The position numbers and the translations under genes are program-made. Below the pieces are notes generated by a model. The model saw only the letters and a list, made by a program, of their open reading frames with translations. It was not told the origin of the DNA and searched no databases. Source: Bacteroidetes bacterium UBA4416 (GTDB lineage: Bacteria; Bacteroidota; Bacteroidia; B-17B0; Aurantibacillaceae). From it: 24,000 nucleotides of DNA. Of this stretch, positions 2 to 7,080 are shown piece by piece; position 1 is the stretch's first letter; each line of letters opens with the position of its first letter. The stretch lies in contig DGQK01000023.1 of assembly GCA_002390745.1 (NCBI GenBank), forward strand, positions 46,104 to 70,103, written 5' to 3'.

Positions 2-622
2 CCGTCGTTTATTCCTAAAACGGATGAAACCAGGGTGCAGGTATTGGAAAAGGTACTGACGGCTTATGCAGGCACTGTCTGCTATGTCACCGAGAAACTC
101 GATGGGAGCTCTGTTACTTTTTACCTGAAAGACGGAGAATTCGGTGTGTGCTCAAGGAACCTTGACCTGGCATTCAGTGAAGACAATTCGATGTGGAAGT
201 TTGCCATTGCCAATAAGCTCGAGGACAAGCTAAAAGCGTTGAACCGGAACCTGGCCTTGCAGGGCGAGATCATCGGAGAAGGGATCCAGAAGAATAAATA
301 CAAGTTGAAAGGACAAAGCATTTACTTCTTCAACATCTTCGATATCGATGCCTACAGCTACTTCTCTTTACAGGAAGTGAAGGCTTTGCTGGGCGATCTG
401 GACTTGAACATGGTGCCTGTTCTGGAAGAAAACTATCTCCTGGAAAGCAATGTGGAAGCCCTGGTGGCTAAGTCTAAACTGAAATCGGTTTTGAATAAGG
501 ACACGATTGCCGAAGGAATTGTGATCAGGCCGGTGGAAGAAAAGATCGACAGGAATGTGATGCAGGGCCGGATGTCTTTCAAAGCCATCAACCCGGACTT
601 TTTGATCAAATACGACGAATAG
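2..622 (+). CDS. ATP-dependent RNA ligase, DraRnl/Rnl5-like (5' end outside window)
   Basis: The frame is open from nt 2, with no stop upstream of the listed 35..622 ORF. It has nucleotidyltransferase motif I VTEKLDGSS (KxDG lysine), EGIVIRP, and a C-terminal SFKAINPDFLIKY typical of DRB0094-type RNA ligases. Recognition is from memory. Confidence 0.7.
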   Translation, partial: PSFIPKTDETRVQVLEKVLTAYAGTVCYVTEKLDGSSVTFYLKDGEFGVCSRNLDLAFSEDNSMWKFAIANKLEDKLKALNRNLALQGEIIGEGIQKNKYKLKGQSIYFFNIFDIDAYSYFSLQEVKALLGDLDLNMVPVLEENYLLESNVEALVAKSKLKSVLNKDTIAEGIVIRPVEEKIDRNVMQGRMSFKAINPDFLIKYDE

Positions 623-846
623 AAACCAGGTAACAGGAAGATCACAAAGGATCAGGGCAACCCACAGGCCTGTGGGTATCAAGGAGTATGAACTCTAGAG
701 CGCATGCATGTTCTTTGCGGCGCTGCCCGGATCACTTGGATGCTTCTATACGGAATAAGAAATATGTCAAAACGACCCGTACATAGTTTTATATATCAGC
801 TTCTATCAGTTTATGATAGCTGAATAGGATTGGTATGCGCAAGCAT

Positions 847-880
847 AGGCCCGGTCCGTAACGACCGGGCCTTTGTTTTT
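847..880 (+). terminator. Intrinsic-terminator-like hairpin plus T-run, 3 nt before the first tRNA
   Basis: AGGCCCGGTC-CGTAAC-GACCGGGCCT is followed by TTGTTTTT. It may act as an attenuator or processing structure, because the tRNA array starts immediately after it. Confidence 0.5.
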
Positions 881-883
881 ACT

Positions 884-957
884 GCCTTCTTAACCCAACA
901 GGTAGAGGCGCTTGTCTTAGGAACAAGTTAGTATTGGTTCGGATCCGATAGAAGGTA
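884..957 (+). tRNA. tRNA with anticodon TAG on a short-variable-arm (type I) body, copy 1
   Basis: Hand-folded cloverleaf: acceptor GCCTTCT/AGAAGGT (G1-U72), anticodon stem CTTGT/ACAAG, loop CTTAGGA, 5-nt variable loop, T arm ATTGG-TTCGGAT-CCGAT, discriminator A. It carries a Leu anticodon but lacks the long variable arm of bacterial tRNA-Leu. Confidence 0.6.
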
Positions 958-993
958 CAGAAAAGAAAAAGAGCAACAAAACAAAAAATAAAA

Positions 994-1064
994 TGCCGGA
1001 TCGTCTAAAGGCAGGACATCAGACTTTGATTCTGAGAGTAGTGGTTCGATCCCATTTCCGGCAA
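994..1064 (+). tRNA. tRNA-Gln(TTG)
   Basis: Acceptor TGCCGGA/TCCGGCA (U1-A72, typical of bacterial Gln), anticodon stem TCAGA/TCTGA, loop CTTTGAT, T arm AGTGG-TTCGATC-CCATT. No CCA is encoded. Confidence 0.8.
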
Positions 1065-1068
1065 CTTT

Positions 1069-1142
1069 GCCTTCTTAGCCCAATCGGTAGAGGCGCTTGT
1101 CTTAGGAACAAGTAAGTGTAAGTTCGAATCTTACAGAAGGCA
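1069..1142 (+). tRNA. tRNA with anticodon TAG on a type I body, copy 2
   Basis: Acceptor GCCTTCT/AGAAGGC and the same anticodon arm as copy 1 (loop CTTAGGA). The T arm GTAAG-TTCGAAT-CTTAC differs from copy 1 by compensatory changes. Confidence 0.65.
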
Positions 1143-1311
1143 CATAAAAAGCTTGTTTTAAACAGGCCGGTCATCACGCCTTGCGGCTGTTGTGATGAGA
1201 CATACATAAGGAGGAATAACCGGGCGGGGCCCGGACAGGCTTGCTAAGCTATGTGTCGCGCTCCGCGCGATGGGTGTCGGGAACTCATTTCTCCGCAGAA
1301 GAAAATAAATT

Positions 1312-1394
1312 GGAGAGTAGCGACCATTGGTGGTCAGGCAGACTTGAAATCTGTAGCGGTCTGAAAGGACAGGGTTCGATTCCTATACTCTCCG
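1312..1394 (+). tRNA. tRNA-Ser(TGA)-like, type II, weak T stem
   Basis: Acceptor GGAGAGT/ACTCTCC, discriminator G, D stem GAC/GTC with loop CATTGGTG, anticodon stem GCAGA/TCTGT, loop CTTGAAA, long variable arm. The T stem CAGGG/CCTAT pairs at only 3 positions. Confidence 0.55.
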
Positions 1395-1401
1395 CAAATA
1401 C

Positions 1402-1474
1402 TGGGATGTAGCTCAACGGTGAGAGCAAGTGCCTTATACGCACGAGGTTGTTAGTTCGAGTCTAACCACCCCAA
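1402..1474 (+). tRNA. tRNA with anticodon TAT (Ile-UAU-like)
   Basis: Acceptor TGGGATG/CACCCCA (one A-C mismatch), D arm GCTC-AACGGTGA-GAGC, anticodon loop CTTATAC, T arm GTTAG-TTCGAGT-CTAAC. Confidence 0.6.
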
Positions 1475-1483
1475 CAAAATATA

Positions 1484-1567
1484 CGGGAAGTATTTCAATT
1501 GGTAGATTGCTGGCTTTGGGCGCTAGTGGTTGCAGGTTCTCACGCCGGGGCGTGACTGCCTTCCCGA
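1484..1567 (+). tRNA. tRNA-Pro(TGG)-like with a 16-nt hairpin in place of the 3' part of the T-loop
   Basis: Acceptor CGGGAAG/CTTCCCG, discriminator A, anticodon stem CTGGC/GCTAG, loop TTTGGGC. The T region is GCAG-GTTC-[TCACGC CGGG GCGTGA]-CTGC. The D stem is weak. Confidence 0.5.
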
Positions 1568-1571
1568 CAAA

Positions 1572-1644
1572 CGATTTGTGGTGTAATGGATAACACACCC
1601 GGCTACGGACCGGGAGACTTAAGGTTCGAGTCCTTACAGATCGG
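1572..1644 (+). tRNA. tRNA-Arg(ACG)
   Basis: Acceptor CGATTTG/CAGATCG, D arm GTGT-AATGGATA-ACAC, anticodon stem CCCGG/CCGGG, loop CTACGGA, T arm TAAGG-TTCGAGT-CCTTA. Confidence 0.8.
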
Positions 1645-1658
1645 CTAAATACAATATA

Positions 1659-1741
1659 CGGGAAGTAGCTCAGTTGGGAGAGCGCGTGCTTTGGGAGCAT
1701 GAGGCCGCAGGTTCTCACGCGAGACGTGACTGCCTTCCCGA
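1659..1741 (+). tRNA. tRNA-Pro(TGG)-like with a 15-nt hairpin in the T-loop
   Basis: Acceptor CGGGAAG/CTTCCCG, canonical D arm GCTC-AGTTGGGA-GAGC, anticodon stem CGTGC/GCATG, loop TTTGGGA. The T region is GCAG-GTTC-[TCACG CGAGA CGTGA]-CTGC. Confidence 0.55.
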
Positions 1742-1746
1742 CAAAA

Positions 1747-1819
1747 GGAAATATAGCAAAGATGGTCAATGCGGCAGATTGAAAATCTGCAGATGTAGGT
1801 TCGAGTCCTGCTGTTTCCA
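1747..1819 (+). tRNA. tRNA-Phe(GAA)
   Basis: Acceptor GGAAATA/TGTTTCC, anticodon stem GCAGA/TCTGC, loop TTGAAAA, T arm GTAGG-TTCGAGT-CCTGC, discriminator A. Confidence 0.75.
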
Positions 1820-1831
1820 CAGGAAATACAT

Positions 1832-1905
1832 GGTGAGATTAGTGTAAAGGCTAACACGACGGGCTGTGGATCCGTTAATACTGAGTTCGAGTCTCGTATT
1901 TCACC
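1832..1905 (+). tRNA. tRNA-His(GTG) with encoded G-1
   Basis: G-1 (1832) is opposite C73 (1905). Acceptor GTGAGAT/ATTTCAC, D arm GTGT-AAAGGCTA-ACAC, anticodon stem ACGGG/TCCGT, loop CTGTGGA, T loop TTCGAGT. Confidence 0.8.
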
Positions 1906-1910
1906 CACAA

Positions 1911-2004
1911 GGGAATGCGCTAACGCTGGAGAGTTAGGCTGGTCTGTAAAACCAGTGCCATTCGGCTGAGAAGGTTCTCACGGCGTGTCGTGATTCCATT
2001 CCCA
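1911..2004 (+). tRNA. tRNA-Tyr(GTA)-like, type II, with a 16-nt hairpin in the T-loop
   Basis: Acceptor GGGAATG/CATTCCC, D arm CTAA-CGCTGGAGAG-TTAG, anticodon stem CTGGT/ACCAG, loop CTGTAAA, long variable arm. The T region is GAA-GGTTC-[TCACG GCGTGT CGTGA]-TTC. Confidence 0.5.
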
Positions 2005-2076
2005 CAGGAATAATTATGGGATATACTTATACCGGTATTTTCCGGAATGTATTCCGCCCAGGCACAAAGAGTTAAA

Positions 2077-2122
2077 TGCCGGATGGCTCAGACGGCTCTT
2101 GTGCTTCGGCGGGATCCCATTG
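2077..2122 (+). other. tRNA-Gln-derived fragment (5' TGCCGGAT ... GATCCCATT), not a complete cloverleaf
   Basis: It shares the first 8 nt and the GATCCCATT T-arm remnant with tRNA-Gln at 994-1064. It lacks an anticodon arm and an acceptor 3' strand. Confidence 0.4.
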
Positions 2123-2213: not shown

Positions 2214-3149
2214 ATGACTGTAAGTTCAAACCTGGACATTTTCTTGAATAAGAAAGTCGTGGATTATTCAAAAGACGAAGGGATTCAAAACCCCGGGGAA
2301 TTTGTTTACCGCATCCGTATCTCCTATGACGATTTTGAAGATGGCGTTTCTATTGAAAGCCTGACAGACGATTTCGCGAAAGATCCGAATGCAGGGGAGG
2401 TAAAAGAGATCATCTTCGGCGCGTTTGACTTTGAATCGAGTAACTCTACCGAGGGCATCGTGAACAAGCTGGTCGAGTATAAAGGAGTATTTAAAAACCT
2501 GAAAGCGGTTTTCATTGGAGATATCACCTATGAGGAAAATGAGATCTCCTGGATCAACCAAAGCAATGTAGGGCCTGTGCTCGACGCTTACCCAGACCTG
2601 GAGCATTTCCAGGTGCGCGGCGGAAACGATCTTTCCTTCGGAAAACTGGAACATACCAATCTGAGGACCCTGATCATCGAAACCGGCGGCTTGCCGCCTA
2701 ATGTGGTAGAAGAAGTGTCAGCTGCGCATTTGCCGAACCTTCAAAAGCTGGAAATGTGGTTGGGATCCGATAACTACGGTTTCAATTCTACCATCGGTGA
2801 TTTTGCCGTGATTATTTCCGGAAAGTCGTTTCCAAGCCTTAATCACTTAGGATTAATGAATAGCGAGATCCAGAATGAGATTGCGATCGAAGTCGCGAAA
2901 TCGCCGGTGCTGGCTCAACTCGACGTGCTGGACATGTCGATGGGAAATATGGATGATAAAGGGGGAGAAGCCATTCTCAACAGCGAAGGCATGAAACACC
3001 TGAAGTACATTAATCTGCGTCATCATTATTTAAGTGATCAGATGATGTCGAAGCTGAGCGCACGTTTCCCGGCCATTAACCTGGACGACCAGGAAGAAGC
3101 CGATGATGATGGCGATGAAAGCTATCGTTACATTGAAGTATCGGAATAA
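2214..3149 (+). CDS. Leucine-rich-repeat-like cytoplasmic protein (STM4015-family-like)
   Basis: 311-aa ORF with repeated LxxLxL segments (LRTLIIETGGL, LPNLQKLEMWL, FPSLNHLGLMN, LAQLDVLDMSMGNM, LKYINLRHHYL) and an acidic C-terminal tail. It is the first gene of a tightly packed operon. The family name is from memory. Confidence 0.6.
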   Translation: MTVSSNLDIFLNKKVVDYSKDEGIQNPGEFVYRIRISYDDFEDGVSIESLTDDFAKDPNAGEVKEIIFGAFDFESSNSTEGIVNKLVEYKGVFKNLKAVFIGDITYEENEISWINQSNVGPVLDAYPDLEHFQVRGGNDLSFGKLEHTNLRTLIIETGGLPPNVVEEVSAAHLPNLQKLEMWLGSDNYGFNSTIGDFAVIISGKSFPSLNHLGLMNSEIQNEIAIEVAKSPVLAQLDVLDMSMGNMDDKGGEAILNSEGMKHLKYINLRHHYLSDQMMSKLSARFPAINLDDQEEADDDGDESYRYIEVSE

Positions 3150-3151
3150 GC

Positions 3152-4276
3152 ATGCGCTTTTTTGTTTTAGGAAATCCTGAAAACCGAAGGGTAAGCTTGT
3201 TTTCTGAAAGCTTTGAGTCATCCGGTTTTGGGCAGGTAATCGTCTTATCCTACCAGGATGTTTTGAAGACGCCGGTTTTGAAAGAAACAGATTTTTCAGG
3301 AAGCATCGTGAGGATCGAATCACCGGGAGAAAATTTTGAGGTCAGGAAATTGCTGATAGCGAAAGGTGCTGCCGCTGCCCGGGAGGAAGGCCTGCCCTTT
3401 GTTTCGGAAGAGCAGGCCCTGCTGTTGGAAGATCCCTCGGAGCTGATCCATACCAGGCAATGGTATTTGGGTTTCAGGGAGCTGTTGCAGGAAATTGACC
3501 TGGAGATGCAACGCCATCCCGGGGCTGCATTCATGAACCTTCCTTCGGATATAACGCTGATGTTCGATAAAAAAGCCTGTCAATCGCTGTTGAAAAAGCA
3601 CGATGTTCAGATTCCTGATTTTCATTGTTCCATCAACAGTTATGAGCAATTGTTGGAAATGATGAGGCTGAGAAAATGGAACAACGTATTTATTAAGCCT
3701 GCGCATGCCTCATCAGCTTCCGGAGTCATTGCTTTCAGGATAGCCGGAGAGAAGCAACAGGCCATTACCACGATCGGTATCAGCCGGAAAGGCGCATCTG
3801 TTCGGTTGTTCAACGCGTTAAAGGTTAAGACCTATACAGCTAAATCCGATATTGAAACGATCATTGACAGGGTTTTGCAGGAAAATGCCATTGTAGAAAA
3901 ATGGATCCCTAAAGCGACTATCGGCGACGACTATTTTGATCTCAGGATATTGGTCATTTGCGGACATGCCAAACACATGGTTGTGAGAAAAAGCAAACAG
4001 GTAATCACGAATCTGCACCTGGGCAATCGACGCGGCACGCCGGAGGAGCTGGAACAGGCGATTGGGAAAGAAAAAACAGAAGAGGCCAGGCGTCTTGCCG
4101 AAAAGGCCGCCGGCTGTTTTGTAAAATCCCTTTATTGTGGGGTTGATGTTCTGGTTGGCGCTGATAAGAAAGACCTTCGCGTATTGGAGGTCAATGCGTT
4201 CGGCGATTTATTGCCAAACGTGCTGCATCACAACAAAAGCTGCTACGAGGCCGAGATAGAGGTCATGATGAAATAA
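3152..4276 (+). CDS. ATP-grasp ligase-like protein (STM4014-family-like)
   Basis: It starts 2 nt after the upstream stop. RimK/ATP-grasp-like motifs are present: VFIKPAHASSASGVIAF, DLRILVICGHAKHMVVRKS..ITNLHLGNRRG, VLEVNAFGD. Confidence 0.7.
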   Translation: MRFFVLGNPENRRVSLFSESFESSGFGQVIVLSYQDVLKTPVLKETDFSGSIVRIESPGENFEVRKLLIAKGAAAAREEGLPFVSEEQALLLEDPSELIHTRQWYLGFRELLQEIDLEMQRHPGAAFMNLPSDITLMFDKKACQSLLKKHDVQIPDFHCSINSYEQLLEMMRLRKWNNVFIKPAHASSASGVIAFRIAGEKQQAITTIGISRKGASVRLFNALKVKTYTAKSDIETIIDRVLQENAIVEKWIPKATIGDDYFDLRILVICGHAKHMVVRKSKQVITNLHLGNRRGTPEELEQAIGKEKTEEARRLAEKAAGCFVKSLYCGVDVLVGADKKDLRVLEVNAFGDLLPNVLHHNKSCYEAEIEVMMK

Positions 4277-4281
4277 GGATA

Positions 4282-4974
4282 ATGAAGCTACCGTCTACCA
4301 TACAAACGATTCTCTTTGATCTCGATAATACGCTGATTGACCGCGACCGTGCCATGAAGGATGCGGTCAGGCATTGGTTGAAAAACCAGGGGACGATAGA
4401 TGAGGAAGATATAGAAACGGAATTAAACCGTGTCCTGGAAAAAGACAATTCCGGTTATACCGACAGGGATTTATTTTGTGAATGGTTGCTCAGCGGCTAT
4501 GCGAACGCTGCCACCAAAGCAAGCCAAACAGCAAGCGAAATATTGAGAGCCCTACAGGAGCTGACAATTTCTTACCTTCAGCCCGATCCTGATATCCTGG
4601 ATACTTTGCAGCAGCTGGAACAGCAGTATCAATTACTTATCGCCACCAATGGAAGTCAATACGTTCAGCAAAAAAAAATGGCGAAGGCGAACCTGGACTC
4701 CGTATTTTCTGCTGATCGCATTTTTATTTCAGAAGCACTTGGTCACCAAAAGCCGGATCCCGCGTTTTACATGAAGATCCTGAAAGCGATCGGGAGAGAT
4801 CCGGCGCAATGCCTTATGGTGGGCGATAATTATATAAATGATGTGGAAGGTGCCAGGCATTGTGGCCTGTATACCTGCTGGATCGCCCATAGGAAAGCCA
4901 GCGGAAAAAAGTCCGCAGATATGACGTTTAACCATATTACAGAAGCAAGACAATGGCTCCGGGAATCAATATGA
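4282..4974 (+). CDS. HAD-superfamily hydrolase (phosphatase-like)
   Basis: HAD motif I ILFDLDNTLID, motif II IATNGS, motif III KPDP, motif IV VGDNYINDVEGA. Confidence 0.85.
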   Translation: MKLPSTIQTILFDLDNTLIDRDRAMKDAVRHWLKNQGTIDEEDIETELNRVLEKDNSGYTDRDLFCEWLLSGYANAATKASQTASEILRALQELTISYLQPDPDILDTLQQLEQQYQLLIATNGSQYVQQKKMAKANLDSVFSADRIFISEALGHQKPDPAFYMKILKAIGRDPAQCLMVGDNYINDVEGARHCGLYTCWIAHRKASGKKSADMTFNHITEARQWLRESI

Positions 4975-5777
4975 ATGAGGTCGTCAAAAGTATGGACGTA
5001 CTTTTTATCACCCTGGACAGCCTCCGTTACGATGTTGCCCGGGAGGCATTTGATAAAGGGATGCTTCCAAACTTCAAATGCCTTTTTCCTGATGGCTGGC
5101 AGAAATGCCATTCACCCGGAAGCTTTACCTTTGCGGCGCACCAGGCCTTTTTTGCAGGCTTTCTGCCAACACCTTCCAGTCATCCGAAACAGGAACGCTT
5201 AATTGCGGCACAGTTTACCGGGAGCGAAACCACAACAGAAAATACCCTGGTAGTTGAAAGCGCCGATATTGTGAAAGGCTTTGAAGAGATTGGCTACAAT
5301 ACCCTGTGTATCGGTGGTGTAGGGTTTTTCAATAAGCAAACCGCTTTAGGATCCGTTCTGCCCTCTTATTTCCGGGAAAGCTTTTGGGAGCCCCGTTTTG
5401 GCGTTACAGAAAAGCAATCAACGAAATGGCAATTTTCAAAAGCCGCTCAGCTGATAGAAGAGCATAACAGGCAGCCCTTATTCCTGTTTATCAATGTGTC
5501 TGCGATCCACCAGCCAAACTGGTTTTACCTGCATGAAGAAAAAACAAGCGATAGTAAAGAATCACACGCTGCTGCCTTGCAGTATGTGGATTCACAGTTG
5601 CCCCTGCTTACCGATGCCTTAAAGAAAAAGCGCGATACCTTTTGCATTGTATGCTCGGATCATGGCACGGCTTACGGCGAGGATCAGTATTCCGGGCATC
5701 GCATCGGGCATCCCACCGTGTGGGAGGTTCCGCTGGCAACCGGTATTATAAAAAAAGAAATTGCAAATGAATTCTAA
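4953..5777 (+). CDS. Alkaline-phosphatase-superfamily, NPP-like phosphodiesterase/hydrolase (STM4013/SEN3800-family-like)
   Basis: VLFITLDSLRYD (metal Asp), GSFTFAAHQAFFAG (resembles the TFPNH Thr-nucleophile motif of type I phosphodiesterases) and CSDHGTAYGE. An alternative start at ATG 4971 gives an ATGA overlap with the HAD stop. Confidence 0.7.
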   Translation: MAPGINMNEVVKSMDVLFITLDSLRYDVAREAFDKGMLPNFKCLFPDGWQKCHSPGSFTFAAHQAFFAGFLPTPSSHPKQERLIAAQFTGSETTTENTLVVESADIVKGFEEIGYNTLCIGGVGFFNKQTALGSVLPSYFRESFWEPRFGVTEKQSTKWQFSKAAQLIEEHNRQPLFLFINVSAIHQPNWFYLHEEKTSDSKESHAAALQYVDSQLPLLTDALKKKRDTFCIVCSDHGTAYGEDQYSGHRIGHPTVWEVPLATGIIKKEIANEF

Positions 5778-7080
5778 ACCCGTATTCAATAATAGGTTCG
5801 AAGGGTATGCTTATTCGTACCCTCATAAACATAGCTACCGCCGTATGGAGCCGGTGTCACTGGAGCAGCTCTGGGCTTCCGAAAAAAAAGACGCCCTCTT
5901 TCTCTACATTCACCTGCCTTTTTGTGAAATGCGTTGTGGCTTTTGTAATTTGTTTACCATCGCTAATCCGCAGGAAACGATAGTGGACGCCTATCTGAAC
6001 ACGCTGCAACAGCAGGCCGAAACGATCCGGAGAGTCATAAAGCCCGAATCCTTCGCGCAAATTGCCGTTGGAGGCGGTACACCTACATTTCTGGAAATGC
6101 CTCAGCTGGAAAAACTATTTTCGATCATGCGCGCTTTAGGCGCTGAGCCGAAGGATATTCCCGCTTCTTTCGAAATGTCGCCAAAAACGATTAACCCGCA
6201 GAAACTGAAATTCCTGGAAGAGAACGGTGTCGACCGCGTGAGTATTGGCATTCAGAGCTTTCTCGATGGAGAGACCAAAGCCCTCGGAAGACCTCAAAAA
6301 AATAAAGAAGTAGAAGAGGCGCTCAACCTGATCCGTCAGTACCGCTTCAACACCCTGAACCTGGACCTGATCTATGGCACCTATGGGCAAACGCCTGCGG
6401 CCTGGCAGTATTCCCTGGAGCAGGCTGTTAGCTTTCATCCGGAGGAGATTTTTATTTATCCTTTGTATGTCAGGGCCTTAACCGGCATCAATAAGCTGGA
6501 TCAGAATGCGCAGGACCTTCGCGAAGACCTTTACCTGCTTGCGAAGAAATTCCTGACGTCAGCCGGATACGAGCAGATCTCCATGCGCCTCTTCCGTTTG
6601 AAAACCGTACGCTCCTCCAAAGCAGCGCTCAGCTATAGTTGCCAGGAAGACGGCATGATCGGTCTTGGTGCGGGAGCGCGCTCCTACACAAAGCACCTGC
6701 ATTATTCTTCGGAATATGCGGTGGCAAGGGGCAATATCAAACACATCATCAACGAATACATTGCTAAAAACAGTAGTGATTTTGAATTCGTGGATTATGG
6801 AATAGAGCTCCCGGTCGAAGAACAGAAACGTCGCTTTGTGATCAAGTCCATTCTTCATGCGAGCGCCCTCGATACGCGGCGTTACGAGTCCCTGTACGGA
6901 AACAAGCTGCTGTCGGATTTCCCACAACTGGGACTGTTGCTGGAGAACCAGCTTGCGGTTATGGATGAAAGCCAAAAGATGCACCTCACGTCGCAGGGGA
7001 CGGATTACTCGGATGCGATCGGCCCCTGGCTGTATTCTCCCTATATCAAAGAACTCATTCAAACCTTCGAACTGAAATGA
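5761..7080 (+). CDS. HemN-like radical SAM enzyme (STM4012-family-like)
   Basis: CxxxCxxC cluster motif FCEMRCGFCNL, GGGTPTF, and HemN-like length. The likely start is ATG 5767, which overlaps the upstream gene. Confidence 0.8.
   Translation: MQMNSKPVFNNRFEGYAYSYPHKHSYRRMEPVSLEQLWASEKKDALFLYIHLPFCEMRCGFCNLFTIANPQETIVDAYLNTLQQQAETIRRVIKPESFAQIAVGGGTPTFLEMPQLEKLFSIMRALGAEPKDIPASFEMSPKTINPQKLKFLEENGVDRVSIGIQSFLDGETKALGRPQKNKEVEEALNLIRQYRFNTLNLDLIYGTYGQTPAAWQYSLEQAVSFHPEEIFIYPLYVRALTGINKLDQNAQDLREDLYLLAKKFLTSAGYEQISMRLFRLKTVRSSKAALSYSCQEDGMIGLGAGARSYTKHLHYSSEYAVARGNIKHIINEYIAKNSSDFEFVDYGIELPVEEQKRRFVIKSILHASALDTRRYESLYGNKLLSDFPQLGLLLENQLAVMDESQKMHLTSQGTDYSDAIGPWLYSPYIKELIQTFELK

Follow-up and report, generated by a model that had tools for sequence, protein, structure and literature searches.

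A stereotyped hairpin cassette overwrites the T-loop of three tRNA genes in a Bacteroidota RNA-repair island

What becomes of a tRNA whose gene no longer encodes a T-loop? The question is raised by a 24,000-nucleotide stretch of the genome of Bacteroidetes bacterium UBA4416 (contig DGQK01000023.1, positions 46,104 to 70,103), referred to below as the window, in which three genes of an accessory tRNA array, two for tRNA-Pro(UGG) and one for tRNA-Tyr(GUA), carry a short hairpin in the T arm. Few RNA structures are as highly conserved as the T-loop and, to our knowledge, no bacterial tRNA has been described without it. An earlier note on this DNA spoke of a stem-loop inserted in the T-loop and knew of no bacterial tRNA class of such a kind; the literature that we searched, also with the sequence of the hairpin, likewise held no bacterial tRNA with a helix in place of the T-loop. 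Alignments with related loci showed that the hairpin is a stereotyped cassette of 15-16 nt and that in all three genes it has taken the place of the nucleotides encoding the 3' half of the T-loop and the G53-C61 pair. In such islands, the same cassette or its sister form has repeatedly supplanted single-stranded loops, or arms in their entirety, in tRNA genes and Y-RNA-like genes alike.

The window is an RNA-repair island on a Bacteroidota chromosome, and one of its genes encodes a type IX secretion sorting domain. The gene for an RNA ligase (Rnl), directly 5' of the tRNA array (Table 1), served as a probe for related loci. The loci retrieved (64 from genomes, 80 from metagenomes and 39 viral), referred to below by L numbers, include approximately 25 with similar arrays; those nearest to the window come from Flavobacterium-like and other Bacteroidota assemblies. 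The tRNA array of the window is syntenic with arrays 3' of the same RNA ligase in other Bacteroidota.

Overwriting of the T-loop in three tRNA genes

The array comprises, in this order, genes for Leu-UAG, Gln, Leu-UAG, a Ser-GCU-like species, Ser-UGA, Ile-UAU, Pro with hairpin, Arg-ACG, Pro with hairpin, Phe, His and Tyr with hairpin. Every Pro and Tyr gene in it is hairpin-bearing and no canonical copy is left. The motif GGTTCTCACG-N(3-10)-CGTGA was found three times on the plus strand of the window (1535-1555, 1710-1729 and 1973-1993) and not once in 100 dinucleotide-preserving shuffles, which supports the earlier claim of a stereotyped hairpin right after T54-T55-C56 in the three genes.

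In all three genes the acceptor stem has 7 bp, the anticodon stem 5 bp and the anticodon loop 7 nt (anticodons UGG, UGG and GUA), and a discriminator base, U33 and a purine at position 37 are present. U54-U55-C56 and the D-loop GG are retained. The T arm has neither a 5-bp stem with G53-C61 nor a 7-nt loop of the U54-U55-C56-R57-A58 type; what is left of the T stem is 4 bp (Pro) or 3 bp (Tyr), followed by unpaired G(G)UUC. CCA is absent from the gene sequences, whose 3' ends read ...CCCGACA and ...CCCACA. In the first Pro gene (paralogue A), with a T stem of GCAG/CUGC and an unpaired GUUC before the cassette, the minimum-free-energy fold was the expected cloverleaf with the 4-bp T stem, the GUUC bulge and a 6-bp capped helix. 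Its D arm is weak because of a U.U mismatch at 11-24, already present in canonical relatives, and in the window copy the 10-25 D-stem pair is broken in addition. In the Tyr gene the sixth pair of the cassette is G.U in the window and A-U in L185.

None of the three genes was called by ARAGORN under default, relaxed or intron settings, nor by the Rfam tRNA model (RF00005) at its gathering score. At a permissive E-value Rfam matched Pro paralogue B alone, as a truncated hit of 22.1 bits (cut-off 29). After the hairpin had been swapped for GAATC or GAATCC, ARAGORN called tRNA-Pro(tgg), tRNA-Pro(tgg) and tRNA-Tyr(gta), respectively. The check with relaxed tRNA models proposed in the earlier note thus gave a sub-threshold score for one gene, and the hairpin swap rescued all three.

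The nearest relatives, L121 and L122 (86% nucleotide identity in the ligase gene), have the same Pro and Tyr genes with an ordinary T arm. It reads GCAGG-TTCGAGT-CCTGC in Pro (GGTTC-GAGTC-CTGC across the window junction) and GAAGG-TTCGAGT-CCTTC in Tyr (GGTTC-GAGTCC-TTC), and the Tyr gene of the window is identical to that of L121 and L122 at all positions outside the T-loop. In related genomes the same genes have a normal GGTTCGAGTCC T-loop. Since the orthologues carry a normal T-loop of which nucleotides 57-61 (Pro) or 57-62 (Tyr) are missing here, the hairpin of 15-16 nt is a replacement, made by overwriting at the DNA level, and not an insertion as had been thought. The equivalents of R57-A58 and C61 are indeed replaced, as the earlier note had it: neither A58, C61 nor the G53-C61 pair is encoded in any of the three genes. 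The Arg and Phe genes of the window, with the identical GGTTCGAGTCC T-loop sequence, have no cassette. Avoidance of a GAGTC restriction site as the cause of the loss was rejected because GAGTC is kept in the Arg, Phe, Ile and His genes of the same array.

The hairpin had also been suspected to be a processed insertion, i.e., a mini-intron that would be excised, after which RtcB or Rnl, perhaps helped by RlaP fill-in, would reseal a functional T-loop. The island has genes for RtcB, for Rnl and RlaP and for a Thg1-like enzyme, and RlaP adds 1-2 nucleotides to the 3' ends of damaged RNA (PMC12776372). ARAGORN also accepted some 10-12-nt deletions in the T region as tRNA, but the accepted products had neither A58 nor C61, and none of approximately 3,900 single deletions, covering all that are possible in the T region, produced a UUCRA loop closed by a stem of 4 bp or more. 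According to the orthologues, 5-6 essential nucleotides are missing from the DNA and the repair would have to supply about five specific ones. No bulge-helix-bulge motif was found at the junctions, which bear a perfect hairpin of 15-16 nt without 3-nt bulges flanking a 4-bp helix, and the Rfam scan matched no intron family, the group I core included. The cassette, moreover, also caps whole-arm deletions and sits in Y-RNA-like and protein-coding genes. As no single excision restores a T-loop containing A58 and C61, a tRNA intron spliced by RtcB or Rnl was rejected on the strength of the orthologue alignments and the exhaustive deletion scan, and we consider it highly improbable. Archaeal non-canonical tRNA introns, processed by the bulge-helix-bulge endonuclease and RtcB, resemble the window genes in the extra sequence of the T-loop region and in the presence of RtcB nearby; they differ in that the window genes are bacterial, have no bulge-helix-bulge motif, are not restored by excision and lack nucleotides 57-61. 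By inspection, the junction was read neither as a kink-turn (the bulged strand has no G.A pairs) nor as a T-loop with an inserted helix (G53 has no partner).

A different arrangement was seen in L193 (2743-2838), where a tRNA-Pro(UGG) gene has a pure insertion of approximately 21 nt in an intact T-loop (TTCGAA-ATGTTAATTCGACGAAGTCA-ATCC). Both T-loop flanks are kept, unlike in the window genes, and this insertion could be a true intervening sequence.

Recurrence of the cassette in tRNA and Y-RNA-like genes

The cassette exists in two forms. The first, TCACGN-loop-N'CGTGA, usually with a tetraloop, accounts for all five copies in the genome of the window; the second is TCCCGAT-NNNN-ATCGGGA. They differ at pair 3 by a compensatory change from A-U to C-G (A-U in 12 and C-G in 11 of the cassettes whose stems were compared). 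Pair 6 is C-G, G-C, A-U or G.U and pair 7 is U-A, A-U or C-G, the partners covarying, and the loops vary freely. The segments replaced range from 4 nt to 45 nt. Both forms meet in one RNA, the Leu-UAG of L122, with the TCCCGA form in the D-loop and the TCACGA form in place of the whole T arm.

Three Pro paralogue lineages (A, B and C) were separated by their D arms and anticodon stems. Lineage A has the cassette in the window and L185 and not in L121 and L122. Lineage B has it in the window alone; the L185 orthologue (9336-9409) is nearly identical and has a normal GAGTC T-loop, so this gain is recent. In lineage C only L185 has it. Among the Tyr genes, those of the window and L185 share the cassette, and L126, a more distant locus, acquired it independently. 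Hairpins at the T-loop position were also found in Leu-UAA and Leu-UAG-like genes of L129, in Phe of L216, L217 and L219, in an Ile-like gene of L217 and L219 and in Pro of L123. The junction lies directly after C56 in 12 of the 13 T-loop cases, and the same junction arose in related genomes in no fewer than nine events that look independent; its identity in two isotypes is not due to chance, as the earlier note had argued. D-loops have been replaced as well (L121, L122, L129, L155 and Phe of L216-219), and the Phe genes of L216-219 have lost both elbow loops to cassettes.

A still more reduced gene, a "mini-Gln", occupies the syntenic place of tRNA-Gln in L186 (1104-1163; the same in L187). 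It consists of the acceptor stem, the Gln D arm and a cassette in place of all that normally separates the D arm from the 3' acceptor strand; the anticodon arm, the variable arm and the T arm are gone. Read by eye, the acceptor helix shows three apparent double (compensatory) changes relative to canonical Gln.

Cassettes also sit in Y-RNA-like genes near Ro60, in the window (10764 and 11267) and in L126 and L141. The first copy of the window forms the tip of a longer hairpin just 3' of Ro60. The second, TCACG-CTTG-CGTGA at 11267-11280, stands where YrlA-type RNAs have the closed acceptor-like hairpin, and the order of T arm, hairpin and D arm recurs in L126, L130, L141 and others. Matches to the Rfam YrlA model (RF02553) were weak (11496-11622 and 11890-11984, with 25 and 21 bits against a cut-off of 69). 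The occurrence of the cassette in both tRNA genes and Y-RNA-like genes fits a shared RNA module, which may be a protein handle or a nuclease-resistance feature as conjectured in the earlier note. The three hairpin-bearing tRNA genes have the ordinary tRNA order, with neither the permuted YrlA layout nor the Ro60-binding end stem; Ro60 lies 7.2 kb 3' of the window array, with the STM4011-4015 cluster between them, and approximately 1.3 kb from the array in L126.

The stretch 10703-12340 (plus strand), between Ro60 and the SPFH gene, is a dense cluster of Y-RNA-like and tRNA-like elements with seven GGTTCRAATCC T-arm motifs. It includes tRNA-like matches at 11351-11423 and 11934-11995 and one true tRNA-Lys gene (11639-11711), and its units share the 5' motif TG(C/T)CGTA...ATACTTCG. 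The motif ATACTTCG is also that of a tandem hairpin repeat of approximately 28 nt in L132 (3080-3250; GTCATACTTCGACTCCGCTCAGTATGAC), in one copy of which the loop GACT has been swapped for the 18-nt palindrome of the cassette family, TCCCGATAGCTATCGGGA. This palindrome is also present in L126 (5329-5346) in frame within the gene for the Thg1-like protein (tRNA 5'-end repair), where four codons have been replaced (IAFEK of the homologues became DPDSYRDER) and the frame is unbroken.

An assembly or sequencing artefact can be set aside for all practical purposes: the same structures were found in independent assemblies, namely GTDB metagenome-assembled genomes, JGI and ENA metagenomes and, for the genome of the window itself, a Logan assembly of run SRR628916, and their loops differ and their stems change compensatorily.

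The island and the other genes of its array

Table 1. Positions of the tRNA array, the hairpin cassettes and the main genes within the window
Feature	Position	Strand	Remarks
ATP-dependent RNA ligase (Rnl, DRB0094-type)	35..622	+	Pfam PF09414, E 2e-29; NCBIfam TIGR02306
Accessory tRNA array	884..2004	+	ARAGORN, Rfam, scan for acceptor and anticodon arms
tRNA-Pro(UGG) derivative, paralogue A	1484..1567	+	aligned with canonical L121/L122 and hairpin-bearing L185 orthologues
Cassette TCACGC-CGGG-GCGTGA	1540..1555	+	6-bp stem, tetraloop; stands for T-loop nucleotides 57-61 of Pro A
tRNA-Pro(UGG) derivative, paralogue B	1659..1741	+	canonical D arm (GCUC/GAGC)
Cassette TCACG-CGAGA-CGTGA	1715..1729	+	5-bp stem, 5-nt loop; in Pro B
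tRNA-Tyr(GUA) derivative	1911..2004	+	bacterial-type long variable arm; 3-bp T stem (GAA/UUC), unpaired GGUUC, cassette
Cassette TCACGG-CGTG-TCGTGA	1978..1993	+	replaces nucleotides 57-62 of Tyr
STM4011-4015 gene cluster	2214-7922	+	between tRNA array and WYL regulator
WYL/WCX-domain regulator	7916..8932	-	kept between array and Ro60 in related loci
Ro60/TROVE orthologue (Rsr)	9186..10703	+	followed by several Y-RNA-like/tRNA-like genes, 10703-12340
Cassette TCACGG-CACG-CCGTGA	10764..10779	+	tip of longer hairpin (UGCCAGGCU...AGCCUGGCA), just 3' of Ro60
Y-RNA-like (YrlA-type) module	11250..11298	+	T arm (GCCGGTTCGAATCCGGT), cassette, D-arm-like segment
RtcB RNA ligase	21115..22542	+	Pfam PF01139, E 2e-81
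RlaP nucleotidyltransferase (RNA-repair-associated Pol-beta family)	23151..23936	+	Pfam PF10127, E 2e-78

The repertoire of this island family comprises Rnl, a Thg1-like protein, the tRNA array, the WYL regulator, Ro60, Y RNAs, RtcB and RlaP; in related loci the Thg1-like gene and a second RtcB gene lie 5' of the ligase. In the window, the 1.6-kb stretch of Y-RNA-like and tRNA-like genes is followed by SPFH, S24 and RNase T-like genes and then by RtcB and RlaP.

The STM4011-4015 cluster is complete, in the order STM4015-STM4014-(HAD)-STM4013-STM4012-STM4011, and encodes an ATP-grasp enzyme, a sulfatase-like hydrolase, two radical SAM enzymes and one uncharacterised protein. It is present in L121, L122, L125, L185 and L189 and missing from L123, L126, L129 and L130. 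A link between this cluster and the hairpin-bearing tRNAs was rejected, the cluster being found also in L121, L122 and L125, where the Pro and Tyr genes are canonical.

Further peculiarities were noticed in and around the array. A Ser(GCU)-like class II tRNA gene (1210-1297, plus strand) was called by no tool. Its acceptor stem, GGAGGAA/TTTCTCC, has an A.C mismatch at pair 6 (GGAGAAT/ATTCTCC in L126), a hairpin (CCGGGCGGGGCCCGG) stands in place of the D arm, the anticodon loop is TTGCTAA, the long variable arm is CGCGC-TCC-GCGCG and the T arm has an odd loop, GTCGGGA. The gene is conserved in L126, L129 and L185 with a covarying T stem. The tRNA-Ser(UGA) gene (1312-1395, plus strand) was called only by relaxed ARAGORN, and its best Rfam match was the tRNA-Sec model, with 35.8 bits, under the cut-off. 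The array tRNA-Ile has the anticodon UAU, and the Leu(UAG) genes, at 75 nt, lack the long variable arm that a tRNA-Leu should have.

Between the ligase gene and the start of the array lies a non-coding stretch (623-883, plus strand; 8586-8857 in L185) that is unusually well conserved for two genomes with 37% divergence at third codon positions of the ligase gene; a leader, a promoter or a further RNA may be encoded there. A second conserved element lies right 3' of the Tyr gene (2018-2118, plus strand; 10100-10210 in L185). It starts with GGGAT and ends with ATCCCA, and these ends possibly form the acceptor-like stem of a structured element.

Mimics, working tRNAs or a selfish palindrome

If transcribed, the three genes would give RNAs that are normal in the acceptor stem, the discriminator base, the anticodon arm and the variable arm. 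Their T arm would consist of a stem of 3-4 bp, a GUUC bulge of 4-5 nt and a capped helix of 5-6 bp. Canonical docking of D-loop and T-loop at the elbow cannot form because there is neither an A58 nor a G53-C61 pair. From what is established about tRNA structure, the acceptor/T stack should be longer by approximately 5-6 bp, and the RNAs would probably be poor substrates for the readers of the elbow, such as the RNase P specificity domain, the CCA-adding enzyme and the L1, L5 and L11 contacts of the ribosome. Enzymes reading the anticodon and the acceptor end could still bind.

Our tentative reading, to which we would give a probability of roughly 0.4, is that the hairpin-bearing genes encode retained and expressed tRNA mimics belonging to the RNA set of the island. 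It is suggested by the conservation of the Tyr and Pro A alleles shared by the window and L185, by the preserved stems and by the presence of the cassette in Y-RNA-like genes linked to Ro60. To nucleases directed at tRNA, or to repair proteins, the mimics would present a genuine anticodon arm and acceptor end, and they may be decoys, sensors or partners of such proteins. We regard mimics as the most likely reading, ahead of working elongator tRNAs or dead genes, with pseudogenes made by a selfish palindrome as a close rival.

The argument from constraint is based on the comparison of the window with L185. At third codon positions the ligase genes differ by 37%, whereas the hairpin-bearing Tyr and Pro A genes differ at 2 of 94 and 8 of 84 positions, respectively (2-10%), inside the range of the canonical tRNAs of the array (0-15%). 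Both changes in the T stem of Pro A retain pairing as G.U, and the cassettes of the shared alleles differ by two loop changes and one change from G.U to A-U. Both the sequence of the cassette and a derived pair in the anticodon stem go with the tRNA allele and not with the genome, hence the hairpin-bearing alleles are shared by descent.

Several observations weigh against the mimic reading. The window and L185 are not sisters in the ligase tree, which makes the age of the shared alleles and the argument from constraint uncertain; the alleles may have been exchanged or gene-converted recently, and this would weaken the argument. The 10-25 D-stem pair of the hairpin-bearing Pro A gene was broken independently in the window and in L185. 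A second hairpin-bearing Tyr gene of L185 (9958-10100) has an insert of approximately 49 nt in the anticodon loop and mismatches in the D and anticodon stems, so that it is either a decaying copy or a case of a second kind of insertion, and the hairpin-bearing Pro gene of L123 is decaying, with several mismatches. With such copies at hand, the earlier statement that a pseudogene is unlikely was too strong. No gene of the island co-varied with the presence of the cassette among the related loci compared. Gains of the cassette are, in addition, recent and patchy among close relatives.

A serious challenge comes from the 18-mer form of the cassette. TCCCGATAGCTATCGGGA is a perfect DNA palindrome that was found at 49 distinct sites in IMG/VR stretches, compared with 2 for a random 16-mer used as a control. 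Its sites avoid coding regions (median open frame across the site 62 codons, against 220 at random positions), and some copies lie inside terminator loops or larger repeats. This is the profile of a dispersed palindrome like the repetitive extragenic palindromic (REP) elements, and therefore the cassettes in tRNA genes could be collateral damage. According to this explanation, a selfish palindrome of 16-18 bp would have turned the three genes into young pseudogenes within redundant arrays, their intact look reflecting a recent hit and the constant junction a target preference of the mechanism. Replaced segments of any size between the two extremes, recent and patchy gains, decaying cassette-bearing copies and the in-frame copy in a protein gene all agree with it, and pseudogenes are known in accessory arrays (3 of 26 genes in the Anabaena trn operon, PMC8421152). 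We consider such damage quite possible, though at less than even odds.

The behaviour of the TCACG form, the one present in the window, argues against a purely selfish origin. It showed no excess in viral contigs, with two viral matches, both in coding sequence. The looser pattern GGTTCTCACG-N-CGTGA matched at least 120 viral stretches by chance, and swapping in a T-loop created no tRNA there, save one spurious call; the tighter viral patterns GTTCTCCCGA..TCGGGA and AGGTTCTCACG..CGTGAYT had no tRNA context. In the viral contigs searched there was no tRNA with either form in its T-loop and hence no sign of a phage tRNA feature. In 34 kb of the genome of the window, by contrast, all five TCACG cassettes lie in tRNA or Y-RNA-like genes, the 10 kb 3' of the window, reached via RlaP, containing no further copy. 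The protein annotations of the window include no RAYT or IS200/IS605-type transposase gene. The shared hairpin-bearing alleles are far more conserved than synonymous sites and their changes preserve pairing, the window array has no canonical Pro or Tyr gene and yet the hairpin-bearing genes are intact, and the acceptor helix of the mini-Gln covaries. A simple target-site rule does not account for the fixed C56 junction either, because the D-loop junctions do not share the target sequence of the T-loop. Overall, there was no support for a preference of the palindrome for the ends of hairpins already present, as flank complementarity around the 18-mer was that of random positions (mean 2.6 against 2.7 pairs; at least 5 pairs in 16% against 11%). 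The cassette could have been copied by gene conversion or by a palindrome-specific mobilising enzyme.

Small hairpin repeats are well known: REP elements, Rickettsia palindromic elements and the GC-rich mitochondrial hairpin elements of fungi, sponges and placozoans (PMC7813641) are mostly non-coding and, like the 18-mer form, occasionally lie in frame in proteins or inside RNA genes without abolishing them. The cassette of the window differs from them in being shorter (15-18 nt), in replacing sequence instead of inserting with target duplication, in hitting the same T-loop position repeatedly and in its TCACG subtype having been seen in structured-RNA genes only.

The genes might also encode working, remodelled tRNAs, in which the hairpin removes the part of the T-loop needed by an elbow-reading toxin and which, once charged, would allow toxin-resistant decoding of Pro and Tyr codons under RNA damage. 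For charging, bacterial ProRS and TyrRS rely mainly on the acceptor end and the anticodon (for Tyr also on the long variable arm) and not on the T-loop, and toxins cleaving the T-loop exist, e.g., the Burkholderia CdiA-CT that cuts between T54 and Psi55. The identity elements have been preserved, namely the acceptor stem, A73 and the anticodon and, for Tyr, also the long variable arm; U54-U55-C56 and the D-loop GG are kept, the junction after C56 is nearly constant, the only Pro and Tyr genes of the array are of the hairpin type and the setting is a tRNA-repair island. However, with the loss of A58, C61 and G53-C61 the T54-A58 pair that shapes the T-loop is impossible; CCA is not encoded, so that the CCA-adding enzyme, like RNase P, would have to accept an arm longer by 5-6 bp; and a helix beyond the elbow should, given the structure of tRNA, clash with the elbow contacts of the ribosome. 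The replacement of both D-loop and T-loop or of whole arms elsewhere is hard to square with decoding, and the Arg and Phe genes with the identical T-loop sequence have been left untouched. We regard decoding as an improbable function. T-arm-lacking and armless mitochondrial tRNAs of nematodes and other metazoans (PMC6158502) likewise have no elbow interaction and keep the acceptor and anticodon arms. They differ in being shortened, with replacement loops and a specialised EF-Tu, while in the window a stable helix extends the arm; the window shows no translation factor dedicated to the hairpin-bearing tRNAs, whose use in translation is only putative.

The mimic reading has its closest parallels among the YrlA Y RNAs, tRNA mimics bound by Ro60/Rsr (Chen et al. 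2014, PMC4201824), which likewise are tRNA-derived modules near Ro60 and RNA-repair genes; in the window, two RNA elements of the stretch 10703-12340, one of them YrlA-type, bear the same cassette. YrlA keeps a canonical T-loop and D-loop, whereas the three genes lose the T-loop and keep the tRNA topology, with a true anticodon arm, a 5'/3' acceptor stem and no stem for Ro60 binding. Another parallel is offered by the L-arrays linked to RtcB and translational stress: the Anabaena trn operon is a mobile tRNA array near RNA-repair genes, some members of which are non-functional and for which a role as a "sponge for toxin RNases" has been proposed (PMC8421152), though hairpin-remodelled T-loops or D-loops are not described there. 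In a loose sense, the mimics proposed here would be comparable to YrlA RNAs and to array tRNAs with this sponge role.

A bolder version of the mimic reading, doubtful in its entirety, would be that the islands make a new class of elbow-less tRNA-derived RNAs, the cassette being copied over the T-loop, often over the D-loop or whole arms, and into Y-RNA-like genes. Such RNAs might cooperate with Ro60, RtcB, the Thg1-like protein and RlaP when tRNAs come under attack, serving as decoys, as sensors or as substitutes that resist toxins, with a dedicated factor recognising the module; a factor of this kind would explain the fixed sequence of the stem.

Under either reading, accessory arrays are under-annotated because standard tRNA finders miss the hairpin-bearing genes. 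If the cassette is selfish, it would be an unusually small palindrome of 16-18 nt that overwrites the loops of structured RNAs at a fixed position and occasionally lands in frame in proteins. If the hairpin-bearing genes are expressed, they would provide natural matched pairs, the same tRNA with and without a T-loop, for asking what the elbow does in bacteria, and a handle on what Ro60, Y RNAs, RtcB and accessory arrays do during RNA damage.

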